A stretch of 62,241 bases of DNA, counting the filler, from Rhabdomonas costata (taxonomy: Eukaryota): the NCBI GenBank assembly GCA_019059605.1. It is 27 parts of 27 records of this genome, joined end to end, with 100 filler letters (N's around TTAATTAATTAA, not from the genome) between each part and the next. Parts side by side here need not be neighbours in the genome. Positions count along the whole stretch, not along the records: positions 39,266 to 41,474 come from JAHMHO010004833.1; 26 more parts are not named here. One strand, given 5' to 3'. The notes under the pieces are model-generated. The model had not been told where the DNA came from. It made no database searches and saw only the letters and a program-made list of their open reading frames with translations. The first letter of the stretch is position 1. Each line of letters opens with the position of its first letter. Both the position numbers and the translations under genes were made by a program. This document shows positions 25,675 to 41,474 of the stretch, in pieces.

Positions 25675-27794
25675 CTGCAAAATTGCAAAAAGCGTACCGG
25701 GTATTGCAAAAGAAAAAACAGATAATCGCACATTCGGAATTAAAACCAATAAAACTCAGTTTGTTTCTGTATCATCCATGACTCACCATGGATGATTTTT
25801 TAATCTCGCCGCACTCCACATTCAACACCACAACAACAAGTGTCCGAAAGGTTCAGAATAAAAATGAGGCAGACACGGTACAAGTCCACACTTTTCAAAT
25901 TGCATGCGCCGCTCTTGAAAATGTGCTTCAGATATGGACGACAGCCAAACCAAAGCAATGTTGGAGTCAACACAAATCATGCTAAAAAGGATGCATTTTG
26001 CGGGACGCAAGCAATCAATATGCAAATGAAGTGTTTCAAGCCTTCGGGTTTTCAAGAGAGGAGTACTTGAACCACATTCGTAAGGTGGAGATCAAGGAAC
26101 AAATGATGAATCGAAACGGCACCTTCCAGTGCCTATGACGCGGGGCATCTCGCACTCGCTGCTGCTCAGCGGCGAGCTTCCTCTGGCTGCACCTTGGTCG
26201 TGGCCGGAAAAGACTCCACAGCAAGTTGGCAGCATGGGTCAGCAATCCAACCATCGCAACGAGAGAAGCCAAGCCCACGACAAACGGGAAGTGGGAGTCT
26301 GGGAATGAAGCATTGCCGGGGAGATGCCCCCATGGCATGCCAAACAACATTCCTGATGATCGTGCAAAAAGACACCCAGTATGAAAGCAGTTGCAAGGAT
26401 GACCGATCTGTCTGAAAATTAAGAGATGTTGTCCATTAAAAAGTAGTAGAATTTATTTCCTAACAGCTACACGATCACATCAGCGAAAGTGGTTGTCGAG
26501 TGTCCAAATCCCTCCAGCTTTGTCCAAACCTGCTTCCGAGTACACACACGCACACGCATACACACACACACTTCACTACAAAGAAACTTCAACACCGAAT
26601 CCATGAATGACACTTCCCCAATCAGCAGAACAGTGCCAGAGAGCGGGTTGAATCCATTGCAGTGCGCCCCATGGGCGGCAAGTCAGGTCCAGTTCAGAAA
26701 TATTTTAGCAAAGAGTACCACGTCCAGACACATCTCCCGGGCCCCCGTTCTCAACGTGATGCAATCACAATTTTGTCATGATTTTTTGTGCCCTTTTCAC
26801 TTCAATCTAACACTGTCTTATGTCTTACCCGCCAGTGCACCCCTAGGCGCTCGTCGTGTAATGTGCAGCCACCGTCCACCGAACTTGTCACCGCGAAATC
26901 TTCCCTGCGATTTTTGTGCGTGCCTGCGTTGATGTTTTCGAGAGGTTGCTTCCGCCAAAGTGAACGCGTGACTACACATTCTTTCAATCGAATTCCATAT
27001 GAATGAATGCAAGTCACAACAACAGGTACTCTGTACCCTGTACCCCTATTGCTACTTGCTCACGGCGGGAACGCTTCCTTGAATCCGTTTCCACAGCCAC
27101 ACGTAAGAGTCCACGCCCGGCAGGAAACAGGCAATGCGCAGATGAGGACCAAACAGCCTGTGAAAAATGTCAACCACACGCCCAGTTGAACATTTGATCC
27201 CTCAACGTTGCACGCGCACACAACAGCATCAAGACGCGCAGCAAAACAGACACCGTCCACACCGTAATTGTCTTTCCACCGCACCACCCCTCGGGGGCTC
27301 GCAATCAAAAATTTGTCGCAAACTAAGAAAAATGCATCCTAAGCACCTGTCAAGCACCACCACAGGCAAATGGGCCGCTCGGCCGCACTCGCAGACCCAT
27401 ACGTTCTGCTCCCTGGCTCCCTGGTACCATAAAAGCGTACCGAAAATACACCAAATTTGGCGCGAAAATTACTAAACAAGTAAACAAGTAAACAAACAAA
27501 ACCTGTTGTCAACGAATTCCACCCTGGGCCATGGTGGACTGGCCTCCACTCGGAGTTCCCGCACCACCTTCAGAAGCCCACCACACTCTTCCAAAAGCCG
27601 CCGCTTAAAACACCCCAAAACNNNNNNNNNNNNNNNNNNNNNNNNNNNNNNNNNNNNNNNNNNNNTTAATTAATTAANNNNNNNNNNNNNNNNNNNNNNN
27701 NNNNNNNNNNNNNNNNNNNNNAGGTTCCTATGCTCTGATTTCATTTCACTTTTGAATGCAGCTCGTCTTGCTGTTATTACTGTTGTTGCGAGTG

Positions 27795-29729
27795 ATGCAG
27801 GCTCCCGAAGTGCACCTCGACTATCTTCGGCGGCATAAAGTGCCGGCCCTCGTGGATGAGCTTATTAAGAGGCTTGTGGTGGATATGCCGAAGGACCCCC
27901 GGAGCTACCTCGCTGCTTTACTGACCGACGGAGAGTTCCTTTCCTCTGCCACTTCCAACCCTGGCTCACGACCAAATAGCTTGTCTTCTGGGCCTGCCCA
28001 CAGCAAGGTAACCGGCTCTCATTTAACTGGTGGAAGCTCGTCCAGTGGTGTCCCCATCCCCACGGACAAGTACCTCAGGCTGACGATCTTGCACTCCAAT
28101 GACATCCACGGGGACTTTGAGGCTGAGATGGCCGAGGGCGATGCCCACTCTCAAATTGGGGGCGTTGCTCTTCTGGCGGGCTATCTCCGGAAGGCTCGGG
28201 AGACCGAGCCGAATGTGCTGTATGTTGTCGCTGGGGATATGTTGCAGGGCTCAGTGGTGGATAAGGAGTTCAAGGGAATCTCGACGATGCAGATCATGAA
28301 CTATCTCTCTCCAACCGTGGCCTGCCTGGGTAACCACGAGGAGGATTATGGGATAACCCACCTGCTTTTTCTGGAGAAGGTCGCGCGTTTCCCCATCGTC
28401 ACCTCCAACCTTTACATGAAGGGCATGGTTTCTCGGCTATTCCGGCCCTATCTCGTCCATGAAGTGCAGGGGTACAAGGTCCTCTTCATTGGGCTGGTTA
28501 CGGCGGACATTCTCATTGGGGTGAAGTCCCGGGACACCCTTGTGGCGGAGAACATTGAGATGACCGGCTACGTTGAGGAGGTTGGGAAGATCTGTGATGC
28601 TTTCAAGACCACAGACATCGACCTCACCATTCTGGTTACCCACATTGGGGTTGAGGAGGACAAGCTCCTGGCCTCGATGTTGAAGCCCGAGTGGGGTGTC
28701 GACCTTATCATCGGGGGCCACTCCCACACATTCCTGAAGGAGCCCCTTAAGGTGAACGGGGTGGTGATAGCCCAGGCTGGGTGCGGAAGCGATCAGATCG
28801 GGCGCTTCGACCTTGTCGTTGACACGGAAACGAACTCCATCGCCGAGCTGAAGTGGGAGTGCGTTCCCGTCAACGCCTCTACGGCCGTTCCCGACCCAGA
28901 TTTAAGCCTTTTTCTAGAGAAGCTTAGTGATCCGGTCAAAAAGAAGTACAACGCGATGCTGTGCAGGTTCAACCGAGCGATGCGGCATGGCGACGGAGAG
29001 GTCGAGACTGAGGCCGGGAACCTGTTTGCGGATGTGATGGCGGGCGCGACAAAGGTGGACGTGGCCTTACTATACAGCAAGTCCCTGAGAGGGGAGAGTT
29101 TGGGTCCTGTGGTAACTCTGGGGGACCTTGACACGTTCTTTCCGTACGAAACCGCCGTTCATGTGGTGGACGTCTCAGGCGAAGTCCTGAAGAAGATCTT
29201 CGTGTTTTGGGTGAGGAAGGAGAACCGGGTTCCTGGCCGAGCGAAGTGCTTTCAAGTCAACCGTGGGGTGAAGGCCGTGGTATGCAGTGGACCCCTCATT
29301 TCAACTTGACATGTTTCCACTGAGCGTTGGTGCTTTTTCGGGCATTGAAGGCGTCTCCAATTTTGGTTGTTTGAACATGTGCGCGGATGCGTGGCAAGTA
29401 CACATCGGTTTTGTGCCATTTATTTTTTCATCGGTTTTGTGAGGTGCTTTGTATTCTCCCGTGTTCACCAGTATGACGACGGCAAGGCTCAGCTGGTAGA
29501 GCTGAGTGTGCAAGGCGTCGCTGTCACCGACGGCTGCACCCTCCGGATCTTCCTGCAAGACTACCCCCTGAAGAACTGCGCGGCCCTCCTCGGCGTCACG
29601 GCGGAGGTTTTGAGTCACACCACCGTGGTGGCCACTTCAATGACTGTAGTGCTGAGGGAGCACCTTCAACTCAGCCGGAACCTGTCCGGATCCGTGGAGG
29701 GCAGGCTGGTCTACCTCGCTGCAAGCTGA
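27795..29729 (+). CDS. 5'-nucleotidase/metallophosphatase (UshA-like) with an N-terminal Dpy-30/RIIa-like docking motif; exons 27795-29279 and 29472-29729
   Basis: LTILHSNDIHG, AGDMLQG, GNHEEDYG, VTHIG, IIGGHSH; N-terminal YLRRHKVPALVDELIKRLVVDMPKDPRSYL; phase-0 GT-AG intron. Confidence 0.92.
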
Positions 29730-36348: not shown

Positions 36349-39060
36349 TGCTCTTCGGGTTGCGCAAAGGTGGGAGATCGGGAAAGAGGAGGGAAGAGAA
36401 GGCAAGAGGACCGGCGACAAGAAGAAAAAGAAGAGAAGAGAAGAGAAGAGAAGAGAAGCGAGAGAAAATAAGAGCAGAGGTAGAAGACGACAGGAGAGGG
36501 AGAGGTATGACGGGAGTGCAGGAAAGGCACCAAACTCCAAACACCAAAAAACCAACCAAAAGTTGCAAAGGGTAAAAACCCTGCGGCCGTTCAAGATTGG
36601 CGAAAACAAAGGAAGGGAGGGCGGCGCACATTCACGTGTTAATGAGGAAGCCACAGGCCATCCTTCTGACAGGAGCATTTGTCAGACCATCGCCAGTCGA
36701 TGCCGTTGCCTTTTGGACTTCAAAAATCCGCAACAAGAAATGTTCAACTGGAAAGCCTGGTGCTAAATCTAGCTTACCGATGAAAAAGGCACGCGGCATT
36801 GCCTGTGTAACAATGGTTTTCCTTTTGACTGTTGACTGCGTACCAAAACACCCACNNNNNNNNNNNNNNNNNNNNNNNNNNNNNNNNNNNNNNNNNNNNT
36901 TAATTAATTAANNNNNNNNNNNNNNNNNNNNNNNNNNNNNNNNNNNNNNNNNNNNGGGTTTTAGTTGCGTGTGGTAGTAGGCATGTGGTGTGCTGAAGTA
37001 GTTGATGGAGGTGCGTTGGAGTTCTGGCCTATTTTAGTGTATTGGGTTGTATTTGAAGTCGCGTTTTTTGTTATTATTGGTTGACTAGTGCTGGAGGTCT
37101 GTATCTGCATATTCGGTAACCGTTTAGGATCACAGTCTCTAGTTTGATGAGGGGGTGTTTAAGTTTGGTGTTTGTGTTTTTGTTTCCTGCGTGTAAAGTC
37201 TTGCGCGGGTTTATAATTAGTCATTTCATGTAGGTTTCGGGTTCGAGTTATGCCATTCATATTCTTCTTGGTCTTTTGCGCTTTAGGTGCGTCGCTGGTG
37301 AGTAGGTATTCCATTGAATTTATTTGCGATTTCCTTTGGTCTACGGGCAGTGGTGTGGTTAGCAGGGACTGAAACTGTAAGCTGGAACATATAGTGCATC
37401 TTGACCGTAGACTTCGCAATTCCAGCAGCAGGACTGAGAGTGCGAAGGTGGTACGCCATGAGTAGTATCGACCACATGACTTGGCATGATTCTACTGAGC
37501 GCGCGATACGGAAAATCTGGCACCGCTCCATTTTTAGCTTCATCTCTGATTATTGACTGATAGTTCGATATTTTTGTTTCACTAACGTGAGTTTTGCAAC
37601 TTGCTTCGTGAATATGGTTCGTTTTTTATTCAGATGACTTACGGTGAGGCGTTCTGGTGAGTTAGGGTGAGATTATGGCGTGGTGATTTTTGGAGGTGTA
37701 ATGGATGGTGATTGCATCCGCTGGTGACGGTATGGGTTGGTTGTGCGTATATCTGTGTAGATTGCCATCTTCTAGCGGCATGTTTGTTTGTGAATTGAGT
37801 CCATCGGTGAGGTGATGGTGCTGTATGTGTACTGCTATCTTCTAGAGGTAAAGTGATGTGGGTGGTGATAATTGGACGTGGTTTCTGTTTGTGTTGCATA
37901 CATATCATTGGACTCTGACATAGGGTGTTTTTCACAAAGTGGATGGCTCAGAATGAACGGTAAGAGTATTTATTGATCAATTACAATAGTTACTCCTATG
38001 ATTTTGGTGTAGGATGTGGGCTAGTTGTGTTATCACGCCAAAGATTTGCCAGTGTAGCATAACCGCATTTACAAAGTTATGCGTGGTGGATAAAAAAAGG
38101 ACTGGTGGTATTCAGCGATGCCAAGCAACTTCAACCCCCAACCAACGTGCAGCCATAGCTTAAGTTATGGTTCATTAACAACCACAGCAGGGTGTGGTCA
38201 TGTACAACCGAGGATGTCGTGGTAGAACTGTCACCCATAGCAGTAGCATGGTATATCAGTGTGATAGGACGCTACTATATGGCCATTTGGACCACACCAT
38301 AGGTGTGTGTATGCAAACATATAAGTGTATTACACTAGTAGCAGTGTATGCGCATGTGCGTTGATGTTATGGTGTTGGTATTGGCTTAGGTCCAAGCATA
38401 GAGTGTGATGATGACTCTGAGCCTCTATGTGTGTACCTTATCATGCAAACATCATGTTGAGGTCAAACATGGCATAGTGTCATCATAATCAGGTTGGTGG
38501 TAGGCGAGTAACAACATTGTCAATCCAAATCTCTGGGTGTTACTGTGTTGTGTCATTATGATGTAGGCATTTGTAAGGTAAAAATAGGAAATATTACCAC
38601 CATGTCATATTTGCTACGCTCGATGACATATTTTAAATTTTGGATGAAATGTTAATGGTAATTCATGTATATGGTAATTCATTCTTGTTTTGTATTTGCA
38701 TGGATGTACATTTAATTTGGTAACTGTGTAATATACACGTGCTCAATGTGGTATTTGATTTTAACAGTTACACAAGATGGCAAAAACAAACAACATGCGG
38801 TAATCTGGTGTAGATGTTTCGAACTTTGGAATTATATCTCAGGTTTAGGGTCTTAGTGCCATGTTTCAGTTGTCTGAGTTGTGCGCATGCAGGTAGACTC
38901 CGTTAAATGCTATTTGTGGCTTGATCATAGATATGTTTATCTTGCTATGTAGCTCAATCTTGCAAATAACGTTTTTGTCTTGGACTTCAGTATCCCGTAT
39001 TGTTTCTTGGGTTCATTGTTTCTGTTGCTGCGTATTGGTGACTTGTTCCAAGTGATGTTA

Positions 39061-39165
39061 GTTGTAGTTGTAGTTGTAGTTGTAGTTGTAGTTGTAGTTG
39101 TAGTTGTAGTTGTAGTTGTAGTTGTAGTTGTAGTTGTAGTTGTAGTTGTAGTTGTAGTTGTAGTT
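39061..39165 (+). repeat. (GTTGTA)n tandem repeat, about 17.5 units, running off the contig end
   Basis: Perfect hexamer array seen directly. Confidence 0.97.
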
Positions 39166-39265: not shown

Positions 39266-40144
39266 GTTTTTTTGTTGTTCTAACCATGTTTTCATCTGTT
39301 ATTTGTATATTATTTTTTAGTATTATATGTAAACATGTATTTCCATCAATATTCATTAAATTAAAATCAATCTGAAATTTTATTATGAAATTTACTAATG
39401 TTATTACATTTTCTTTTATTATTTTGTGAAAAAATGTATCACCATATATATCTTGATTATTTATATTTATCTTGTAATTTATCAACAATTTAATCATTGT
39501 TTCATTTGTTGCATATGCTAATGCGTTTTCATCCAATTCATTTGTGATATTTATATTTATTTTACTATTTACTAAATATCGTATTGTTTCTTCATCATCA
39601 TTTTTAACTGCAATATGTAATGCACTTTCGTTTTGTTTATTTATATCTTCTAAATTTACATATCTTATTATTTCTTTGTACATATTTAACATTTTATATT
39701 TTATTGCAAACAATAATAAATTATTACCATTGTCATCATATATAGGATGATCCATTTTACTTAATAAAATATTTAACATTTCCATATTTTTCAATATTAT
39801 TGTATAATGTATCGGTAGAAGACCATAGTAATCTTTTAGATATAAAATATTATTACCAATATATGTCTTATTATAAATTAATATTTTATCTAGAATAGAA
39901 ATATTATTATTTTTAATAACATAATATAGCAAAGATCTTTTTTCGATATCGAAAATATCTATTTTTGGTTTTTTTTTATCAATTATCGTTATGATTAATT
40001 TGTTATGATTGCTTAATAATGCATGAGTAAGTAAATAATTTCCATATTTATCTATTATATTTATGTTATTTATTTTTGCAAGTTTTGTCAATAACAAATT
40101 TATGTTATTTTTTTTATAAGATCGAATAAATATTCATAATCCAT
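39266..40144 (-). CDS. Ankyrin-repeat protein, 3'-partial; likely true ATG at 40144 with a homopolymer frameshift at 40108-40115
   Basis: Repeats DKYGNYLLTHA, DYYGLLPIHY, NKQNESALHIAV, QDIYGDTFFH, NIDGNTCLH. Adding one A to the A8 run fuses MDYEYLFDLIKKNNIN to the ORF. Confidence 0.9.
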
Positions 40145-40183
40145 TATATTTTTAAAATATAATTTATACTTTAAAAATATAAT
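40143..40183 (-). terminator. Mimivirus-type 3'-end hairpin
   Basis: 14 perfect pairs, one G.U pair (minus-strand RNA only), 4 more pairs and a 3-nt loop, starting just past the stop of ORF 40779-40186. Confidence 0.7.
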
Positions 40184-40185
40184 AT

Positions 40186-40779
40186 TTAATTGTTTATTTG
40201 TTTCAAAAATTCAAAATTCATCAAATTTAAATGTGAATGTATGTTTTTCCATTCTTTCTTATGTTTCATTATATATTTTAATAAAAATGTGTACAAATTA
40301 TGTTTCGTGAATTTATCTTTATATTTATCTATATCTATGTTATTTAATCGTGCTGTATATAGCCAATCTTTCATCATAACTAGATAAAATATATCTATCC
40401 AGCTATCTTCAAAAAATCCCAATTCATTACCATAACATATTAACGCATATTCTAAATATCTTACATATGATCTATAATCTGTATCTTTTTTAAAATTTTT
40501 ATTTAAATATTTCATCACATCACCAAATGATTTCGCATCTTCACATACTATATTTAAAAAAGATTTAGTATCATGTACGAAATTAATTATTGGTGTTGCA
40601 AATGATGATGTGATTTTTTTCTTTGTAAAACATATATTTACCACTGGTGCATCATAATGTTTTAGTTGAAAAATTGTATATGTTGGACATCTTGGTATTA
40701 TCACGTCTGAAATTAAAAGTTCAAGTATTACGGGATGTATAAAAGGTTTCGTCGTACATTTATCTATACATATATCCAT
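40186..40779 (-). CDS. Hypothetical viral-type protein, 197 aa
   Basis: Complete intronless ORF in AT-rich DNA; N-terminal CxxxC...IHPV...CP pattern. Confidence 0.8.
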   Translation of the reverse strand: MDICIDKCTTKPFIHPVILELLISDVIIPRCPTYTIFQLKHYDAPVVNICFTKKKITSSFATPIINFVHDTKSFLNIVCEDAKSFGDVMKYLNKNFKKDTDYRSYVRYLEYALICYGNELGFFEDSWIDIFYLVMMKDWLYTARLNNIDIDKYKDKFTKHNLYTFLLKYIMKHKKEWKNIHSHLNLMNFEFLKQINN

Positions 40780-40919
40780 CTTATATAAGACTTATAAAAA
40801 TTTTAGTATATCTACAAATAATATTATCATAACACATAAATTAATTAGAGTACAATTTATATGTAAGTTCACTAAAATAAAATTAAAATCAAATCATTTT
40901 TTATAATTTTACATTATAT

Positions 40920-41474
40920 ATGTTGATATTACAAACATTAGACAAATATAAAAATACATTCATCAATAATGCTATTAAATCTTTGTTTATTAATCTAAAT
41001 ATAAATGATATATTGCTTTTACATGAACTTTTAATCAGATTTATTTATGCAATATCTGTGATTTTTTCATTGCACATTGATAAACTTATTGATCAATTAT
41101 TTAAAAATCATTATCGTGATTGTAAACGTCTTGGTTTGTTGTTACTTCCTGAAATTAAAAATAGAGATAAATTATTATCGTTTAACAATTTATATCATGA
41201 AAAAGAAAAAAGTTCATGTTCTAATACTAATATAGCCAAATGTCAACCTGATTATTTATTTACATATATACAATATAACAGATGTAAAAGACAACCACTT
41301 GAAGAAATTAATTTTTCTTTTGAACATTTAAAACATAATTTAATTTTGTTGATCGATACATTACAATGTGTTTCAAATAAATTATTTGTTAATTGGTTAC
41401 ATACTACTCCAATTGATCTTCATACATATACATTAGAACCTATTTATAATTTAACATTATCTAGATATAATTCT
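40920..41474 (+). CDS. Viral-type protein N-terminus, 3'-partial
   Basis: Intronless 185-codon ORF; QLFKNHYRD..LLLLP and SNKLFVNW motifs recall a large conserved mimivirid protein (from memory, unverified). Confidence 0.75.

Follow-up and report, generated by a model that had tools for sequence, protein, structure and literature searches.

A probable genome fragment of a mimivirus-lineage giant virus in the draft assembly of the flagellated eukaryote Rhabdomonas costata

We have studied contig 18 of a 62,241-base stretch of the Rhabdomonas costata draft assembly (GCA_019059605.1), the whole of which is called the window below. The window consists of 27 contigs of 2205-2212 bp each, joined by spacers of the form N...TTAATTAATTAA...N, and looks like a slice, sorted by length, of a fragmentary assembly. 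Since the contigs are of near-equal length and are joined by spacers, neighboring regions of the window are not physically linked. Contig 18, whose ends coincide exactly with the interval 39266-41474 singled out in a preliminary description of this DNA, is very probably a genuine piece of an uncultivated giant-virus genome belonging to the mimivirus lineage (Nucleocytoviricota, Imitervirales, Mimiviridae-like). This origin is well supported, because all three of its open reading frames (ORFs) match giant-virus bins and a scan of prokaryote genomes gave no relative of the helicase domain. The features of the contig are as follows.

39266-41474, no strand: contig 18, probable mimivirid-like giant-virus genome fragment (2209 bp, 19.9% GC, ~90% coding).
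39267-40097, minus strand: ankyrin-repeat gene, main frame, 277 amino acids (aa), recognized by Pfam Ank_2; the C-terminus is cut by the contig end.
40098-40144, minus strand: probable 5′ end of the ankyrin gene; a 12-codon frame, MDYEYLFDLIKK, starts from the ATG at 40144, outside the main frame.
40186-40779, minus strand: ORF197, complete 197-aa protein of a mimivirid-restricted family, recognized by hidden Markov model (HMM) matches, a profile and BFVD matches.
40780-40919, no strand: AT-rich intergenic region of 140 nucleotides (nt) between the divergent ORF197 and helicase genes; candidate bidirectional promoter.
40920-41474, plus strand: ORF3, 5′ part (185 codons) of the gene for a large DEAH/RHA-type helicase; the frame continues past the contig end.

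The base composition of contig 18 clearly sets it apart from the remainder of the window. Its GC fraction is 0.199, compared with a mean of 0.519 for the other 26 contigs (standard deviation [SD] 0.035, range 0.411-0.583), i.e., 9.2 SD under that mean. The preliminary description had called it the only AT-rich contig, and among the 27 contigs of the window this is so (19.9% versus 41-58% GC), the statement being one about the window and not about the assembly. It had also been described as gene-dense and intronless, with an ankyrin protein, a 197-aa ORF and a divergently transcribed ORF. All three ORFs are indeed present, the coding fraction is 0.90-0.92, and the intergenic gaps measure just 41 and 140 nt. 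Contig 18 thus has the AT-rich, gene-dense and intron-poor profile expected of a Mimiviridae-like genome. When the 926 ORFs of the viral and metagenome loci that we fetched were compared with the window by tblastn, contig 18 received 114 matches and the remainder of the window 2, both weak (E = 4.7e-4); by this limited test there are no further viral-looking contigs in the window.

ORF3 is the virus-specific N-terminal helical domain of a helicase, the core of which would lie beyond the contig end. The frame is open for all 185 codons, and it matches the first ~180 residues of a protein of 1232-1759 aa in every sufficiently long locus. Scans of IMG/VR gave 3 loci with ORF3 alone and 17 viral-contig relatives when an alignment was used, and peptide patterns gave 167 metagenome relatives of the domain, the best of them 36-41% identical. 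The best viral-contig relative is the 1559-aa helicase of the locus L004, with 39% identity over 160 aa and E = 8e-28 in composition-adjusted BLASTP; the helicase of a second locus, L001, is 28% identical (E = 2e-14). A leave-one-out profile of 14 relatives, built without ORF3, gives ORF3 a score of 108.7 bits (E = 3.3e-26 scaled to 1.84 billion sequences). The highest identity of the domain to anything found is 42%. Its best-conserved stretch is NKLFVNW, and residues K154, N158 and W159 are invariant in 15/15 sequences. Both motifs quoted in the preliminary description are real and conserved, the NKLFVNW region among the metagenomic relatives and the IDIFDIEKRSLLYY block by its alignment to viral orthologues.

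The Walker A motif, the DEAH box and the helicase C-terminal domain belong to the full-length relatives, contig 18 stopping at codon 185 before the core. Pfam DEAD and Helicase_C score near their cut-offs in these relatives, and the full-length core of L004 resembles Prp43, Prp22, DHX8, DHX36 and HrpA (best E = 3.6e-24). A Pfam scan of ORF3 itself returned nothing. An AlphaFold model of ORF3, calculated from a 15-sequence alignment, is all-helical with a mean predicted local distance difference test score (pLDDT) of 71.6. Its top matches in BFVD are Moumouvirus 'Monve' H2EEB1 (E = 2.6e-6) and Megavirus courdo11 K7Y9C6 (3.7e-4), followed by Bandra megavirus A0A2K9V8D2 (1.6e-3) and a Megaviridae environmental sample (5.1e-3). 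These four best matches are named 'Putative ATP-dependent RNA helicase' or 'RNA helicase' and have probability 1.00, falling to 0.03 for the fifth.

ORF197 is intact and keeps the conserved residues of its family. A full HMMER pass over 1.84 billion representatives gave three matches (E = 2.4e-6, 3.0e-4 and 4.9e-4). With these three relatives ORF197 shares an N-terminal motif of Cys4, Cys8, His15-Pro16 and Cys31, and the pattern of the family as a whole is Cys-x3-Cys...His-Pro...Cys followed by a C-terminal helical domain. A profile of ORF197 and its three relatives matches the divergent gene upstream of the helicase in L001 (1e-27) and L004 (2e-19), and BLASTP of ORF197 against the L001 neighbor gives E = 2e-4. 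Because this signal could have stemmed from the three relatives alone, a 17-member profile was built without ORF197. It gives ORF197 58.5 bits (E = 6e-11 scaled to 1.84e9 sequences), and among the 473 ORFs of the window ORF197 is its sole match.

The model of ORF197, based on 6 sequences (mean pLDDT 65), is confident only for the helical C-terminal domain, residues ~68-197. BFVD matches are to uncharacterized proteins of Harvfovirus (E = 9e-6, probability 1.00), Megavirus lba (E = 1e-2, probability 1.00) and Hokovirus (probability 0.97). Foldseek found no match in the PDB at E <= 0.001, and a wide VIA-align search of solved structures with the ORF3 domain gave a best Z of 5.6, within the noise for helical models, so that no solved fold or function is assignable to either domain. 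From its conserved Cys/His pattern we infer that ORF197 has a putative zinc-binding N-terminal knuckle together with a helical interaction domain. Two Pfam candidates for ORF197, GP7 and Rcd1, were rejected as noise, scoring 15.5 bits (cut-off 27) and 13 bits (cut-off 37.7).

The third gene clearly encodes ankyrin repeats. Ank_2 is recognized with E = 1.5e-30 (106.1 bits; cut-off 27.3), and Ank_4, Ank_3 and Ank score 79.3, 52.5 and 46.5 bits. By sequence comparison the ORF corresponds to the N-terminal portion of an ankyrin protein, 686-745 aa long, whose gene is conserved close to that of the helicase in mimivirid bins. It is collinear with the 745-aa protein of contig C34 of the giant-virus bin G002, residues 11-262 aligning to residues 40-297 (35% identity over 260 aa, E = 4e-23). 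There is one strong match per bin in G002 (35%, E = 1.5e-24) and G001 (34%, E = 5.4e-20), each sharing a contig with the helicase; in G002 this is the 14-kb contig that carries the L004 helicase. A second match in G002 is weak (E = 4.9e-4), has internal stops and lies on another contig, and bin G003 gave no match to the ankyrin ORF. The orthologues of 686-745 aa occur on 6 distinct contigs, and in loci with the helicase they are encoded on the opposite strand 379-1434 nt past its 3′ end, and Erv1 and Nudix genes are close by.

The ankyrin ORF contains no in-frame ATG. The 12-codon frame MDYEYLFDLIKK ends just past a run of eight T residues at 40108-40115 (A8 on the coding strand), from which point the main frame continues. 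When an X bridges the break, the N-terminal sequence can be aligned to the beginnings of 5 orthologues. The break at the T8 run may be either an assembly error or a real frameshift.

Is the local gene order shared with Mimiviridae-like viruses? For the divergent pair of ORF197-family and helicase genes we find that it is. The fetched loci contain 96 ORFs with the helicase N-domain. An ORF197-family gene accompanies it in 24 loci, and removing by contig name those contigs that had been fetched twice reduced these to 20 distinct contigs. The ORF197-family gene is directly upstream of the helicase and divergent from it in 17 of the 20, with a gap of -95 to +432 nt using first-Met ORF calls. It lies 1.5-1.6 kb upstream in two of the others and on the same strand in the last. 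The intervening 140-nt region of contig 18 is presumed to be a bidirectional promoter region. A quick maximum-likelihood tree was calculated for 79 N-domain rows, leaving out exact duplicates and rows with fewer than 140 profile positions. All 19 pair-bearing rows fall together with the query in a single clade of 32 rows (Shimodaira-Hasegawa-like approximate likelihood ratio test [SH-aLRT] value 99), and the pair is absent from the other clade, which has 47 rows. Within the searches made, this gene-pair clade was met only as metagenomic contigs and bins.

The loci of the relatives have some further features. A longer block is common to L004 (G002:C34), L001, L002, L003, L021 and L022, comprising a conserved 176-203-aa gene, the Cys-motif gene and the DEAH helicase, and continuing with (a 396-aa gene), an Erv1/Alr sulfhydryl oxidase, the ankyrin protein and a Nudix hydrolase. 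A MutS gene adjoins the conserved block in L001. The 686-745-aa ankyrin protein of these relatives has a C-terminal domain of ~350 aa that belongs to no Pfam family. A low-complexity ORF of VEPT/VAEP repeats replaces the Cys-motif gene upstream of the helicase in L002 (9199-9685) and L003 (7671-8264), which are viral contigs of 36-39% GC with shorter helicases of ~1250 aa. Two other helicase-bearing viral contigs, L016 and L017, have ~16% GC, under that of contig 18.

The relatives are viral. Those of all three ORFs are found in bins G001 and G002, both of which have genes for the nucleocytoplasmic large DNA virus capsid (PF04451) above the cut-off. Searched for in G001 (241 kb), G002 (1.31 Mb) and G003 (306 kb), this family was above its cut-off in all three, and in 0/14 control genomes. 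The closest viral locus, L004, has a GC content of 17-25%. Applying the same peptide patterns that gave the 167 metagenome relatives to 185,579 prokaryote species genomes, one for each species, gave no relatives of the helicase N-domain. The significant BFVD matches of ORF3 and ORF197 are all mimivirid (Megamimivirinae and Klosneuvirinae). The preliminary description had read the contig as a Mimiviridae-like fragment and proposed searching its three ORFs by BLASTp and HMM against giant-virus genes, with best relatives in AT-rich bacteria as the contrary outcome. Such searches found relatives for all three ORFs in capsid-bearing giant-virus bins, and the prokaryote genomes gave no relative of the helicase N-domain, so that this reading is strongly supported.

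A number of observations weigh against a mimivirid origin, or against the detailed orthology by which we argue for it. Several searches with single sequences failed. For ORF3, a word-based search against longer proteins returned nothing. For ORF197, plain BLASTP against the neighbor gene of L004 was not significant (E = 2.7), phmmer with ORF197 alone found no match among the ORFs of the 20 loci, a word-based search of 5.8 billion proteins gave nothing, nor did a single-protein scan of viral contigs, and the ESM Atlas offered only weak clusters of bacterial 'hypothetical' proteins (score 0.91, with recognition under the usual level). Because BLASTP (L004) and phmmer failed, the family membership of ORF197 rests on the HMMER pass, the leave-one-out profile and the BFVD folds. 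The single-protein scan of viral contigs with the ankyrin ORF was likewise empty. The ankyrin gene of contig 18 lies on the other side of the helicase from that in the relatives, adjoining ORF197, from which we deduce a local rearrangement or a paralogue, and its reading frame is broken near the start. The octamer AAAATTGA is the early promoter motif of mimivirus, typical of mimivirus and CroV and not defining for the order; it has 0 exact matches in the whole of contig 18, including the regions upstream of all three genes, although with just three upstream regions on the contig this absence weighs little. In the tree, the query sits on a long end branch (1.4), its amino-acid composition is deviant and its identity to any row is <= 42%, making its exact place inside the 32-row clade unsure. 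Lastly, the 2.2-kb contig carries three non-core genes; the major capsid protein, PolB, A32 and VLTF3 are not on it.

Taking contig 18 as mimivirid, what might its genes do? In our proposal, the contig was co-assembled with the DNA of a eukaryote of roughly 52% GC, and it would represent parts of a gene neighborhood conserved within a mimivirid group. ORF197 and the helicase gene would be transcribed divergently from their common 140-nt AT-rich region. The helicase may unwind RNA in viral transcription or mRNA handling, as suggested by the likeness of its relatives' core to Prp43, DHX8 and HrpA. A zinc-binding adaptor or regulatory role is conceivable for ORF197, and the ankyrin protein could bind host proteins, by analogy with ankyrin proteins of other large DNA viruses.

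How did the viral DNA come to be in this sample? We give about an even chance to its belonging to a bystander, i.e., a particle that was attached, ingested or co-sorted, a virus of some other organism, or contamination from another sample. Just one of the 27 contigs of the window is viral and it is only 2.2 kb long, suggesting low coverage, and contig 18 carries nothing that links the virus to a host. That the assembled eukaryote is the true host of the virus is possible, and on balance we doubt it. Still more doubtful, in our estimation, is the specific proposal that the assembled flagellated eukaryote was naturally infected by a virus branching deeply within the gene-pair mimivirid clade, or had very recently acquired its DNA by integration. 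Were that proposal correct, this would be the first host for the clade.

An endogenised giant-virus element in the chromosome of the eukaryote seems to us improbable. The frame break near the start of the ankyrin gene is of the kind found in decaying insertions, but it falls inside a homopolymer of 8 bases, where sequencing or assembly errors typically arise. ORF197 is intact and retains its conserved residues, and ORF3 is open for 185 codons. In 300-bp windows the GC fraction is 0.153-0.257 along the entire contig, so that these windows reveal no host-like flank, but both ends are assembly breaks only 2.2 kb apart. Our working view is that the viral DNA in the sample was free or replicating rather than inserted.

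The weakest alternative, an AT-rich cellular source such as a Rickettsiales- or Legionellales-like bacterium, an AT-rich protist or an organelle, could draw on the occurrence of ankyrin repeats and ~20% GC in intracellular bacteria and some protists and on the bacterial hypotheticals that are the weakly scoring ESM Atlas neighbors of ORF197, but it is largely refuted by the absence of helicase N-domain relatives from the prokaryote genomes, by the matching of the three ORFs to genes that sit together in capsid-bearing virus bins, by the mimivirid identity of every high-probability fold match, and by the lack of rRNA, tRNA or any other Rfam family anywhere in the window.

The other contigs of the window encode eukaryote-type domains. 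DSPc is above its cut-off, and a midasin-type AAA domain is indicated by AAA_5 at 25.6 bits against 22, with AAA-lid below its cut-off (19.8 against 22.7). The window's sole hint of cilia or flagella is a CFAP65/HYDIN-type Ig-like domain on contig 19 (41575-41838, plus strand), below the Pfam cut-off at 23.7 against 27 bits. On contig 13, a 517-aa frame (27756-29306, plus strand) encodes a metallophosphatase/5′-nucleotidase that shares 53-56% identity with cyanobacterial enzymes across ~79% of its length and has an additional N-terminal extension of ~100 residues; in the ESM Atlas it falls with bacterial 5′-nucleotidase clusters. It may be a gene of the eukaryote with bacterial or plastid ancestry, or the contig may be bacterial. 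Contig 17 (36956-39165) has the second-lowest GC content of the window, 41%, and unlike contig 18 is not AT-rich. It ends in a long (GTTGTA)n microsatellite at 39050-39165 that runs into the spacer.

To our knowledge, very few of the giant-virus lineages detected by metagenomics have a known host, and therefore any physical association of a viral contig with a eukaryote offers a lead. Should a bin of this virus with meaningful coverage be present in the rest of the assembly, a mimivirid clade seen only in metagenomes would be linked to a host, and a very divergent genome would be added, given a helicase N-domain with <= 42% identity to anything found. A single contig of 2.2 kb shows only the presence of viral DNA in the sample. 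For users of the assembly, contig 18 is non-host sequence to be removed or labeled. The ORF197 family, which is mimivirid-specific and tightly paired with the DEAH helicase gene, is a candidate for functional study in cultivable relatives.

We have compared contig 18 with several known systems. The 'putative ATP-dependent RNA helicase' of the Megamimivirinae (H2EEB1, K7Y9C6 and A0A2K9V8D2) has the same predicted N-terminal helical fold as ORF3 (Foldseek probability 1.00, TMq 0.58-0.64, E = 2.6e-6 to 1.6e-3). It differs in that its identity to ORF3 is only 24-27%, and in that the catalytic motifs lie beyond contig 18. We take this helicase to be the orthologue of mimivirus R366. The preliminary description had likened the motifs to conserved mimivirid genes near mimivirus R366-L371; this fits the relatives, in which helicase, Erv1, ankyrin and Nudix genes form one conserved block, while the labels R366 and L371 themselves were confirmed by no tool or paper. 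A literature search for R366 with helicase gave nothing, and in one paper that has the term, R366 labels a tagged viral-factory marker, with nothing said of the helicase.

Bodo saltans virus is a klosneuvirus of a kinetoplastid flagellate, and its description gives 25.3% GC, a host of ~50% GC and 148 ankyrin genes (PMC5871332). On those figures, the contrast between virus and host is the same as that of contig 18 with the other contigs of the window. No protein of Bodo saltans virus is among the 50 BFVD matches listed for the ORF3 or the ORF197 model. Giant-virus sequences found with single protist cells or in protist assemblies have been used to propose hosts (PMC6789865, PMC6792449, PMC12644861 and PMC10327091). 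These studies had whole bins and several cells, in contrast to the one 2.2-kb contig here. The presence of giant-virus contigs in draft and single-cell assemblies of protists is already well documented.

The comparison with bin G002, which is IMG/VR GVMAG-M-3300023174-155 (1.31 Mb in 87 contigs), brings all three genes together. Like contig 18, its contig C34 has ~20% GC, and it carries relatives of all three ORFs on 14 kb, with the ORF197-family gene divergent from the helicase across a gap that measures 39 nt in G002. It differs in sequence, with identities of 39% for the helicase N-domain, 35% for the ankyrin protein and about 20-22% for the ORF197 family. It differs also in arrangement, for in G002 the ankyrin gene is downstream of the helicase, past the 396-aa gene and Erv1, whereas on contig 18 it is upstream and adjoins ORF197. 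The virus is divergent, though of a known kind.

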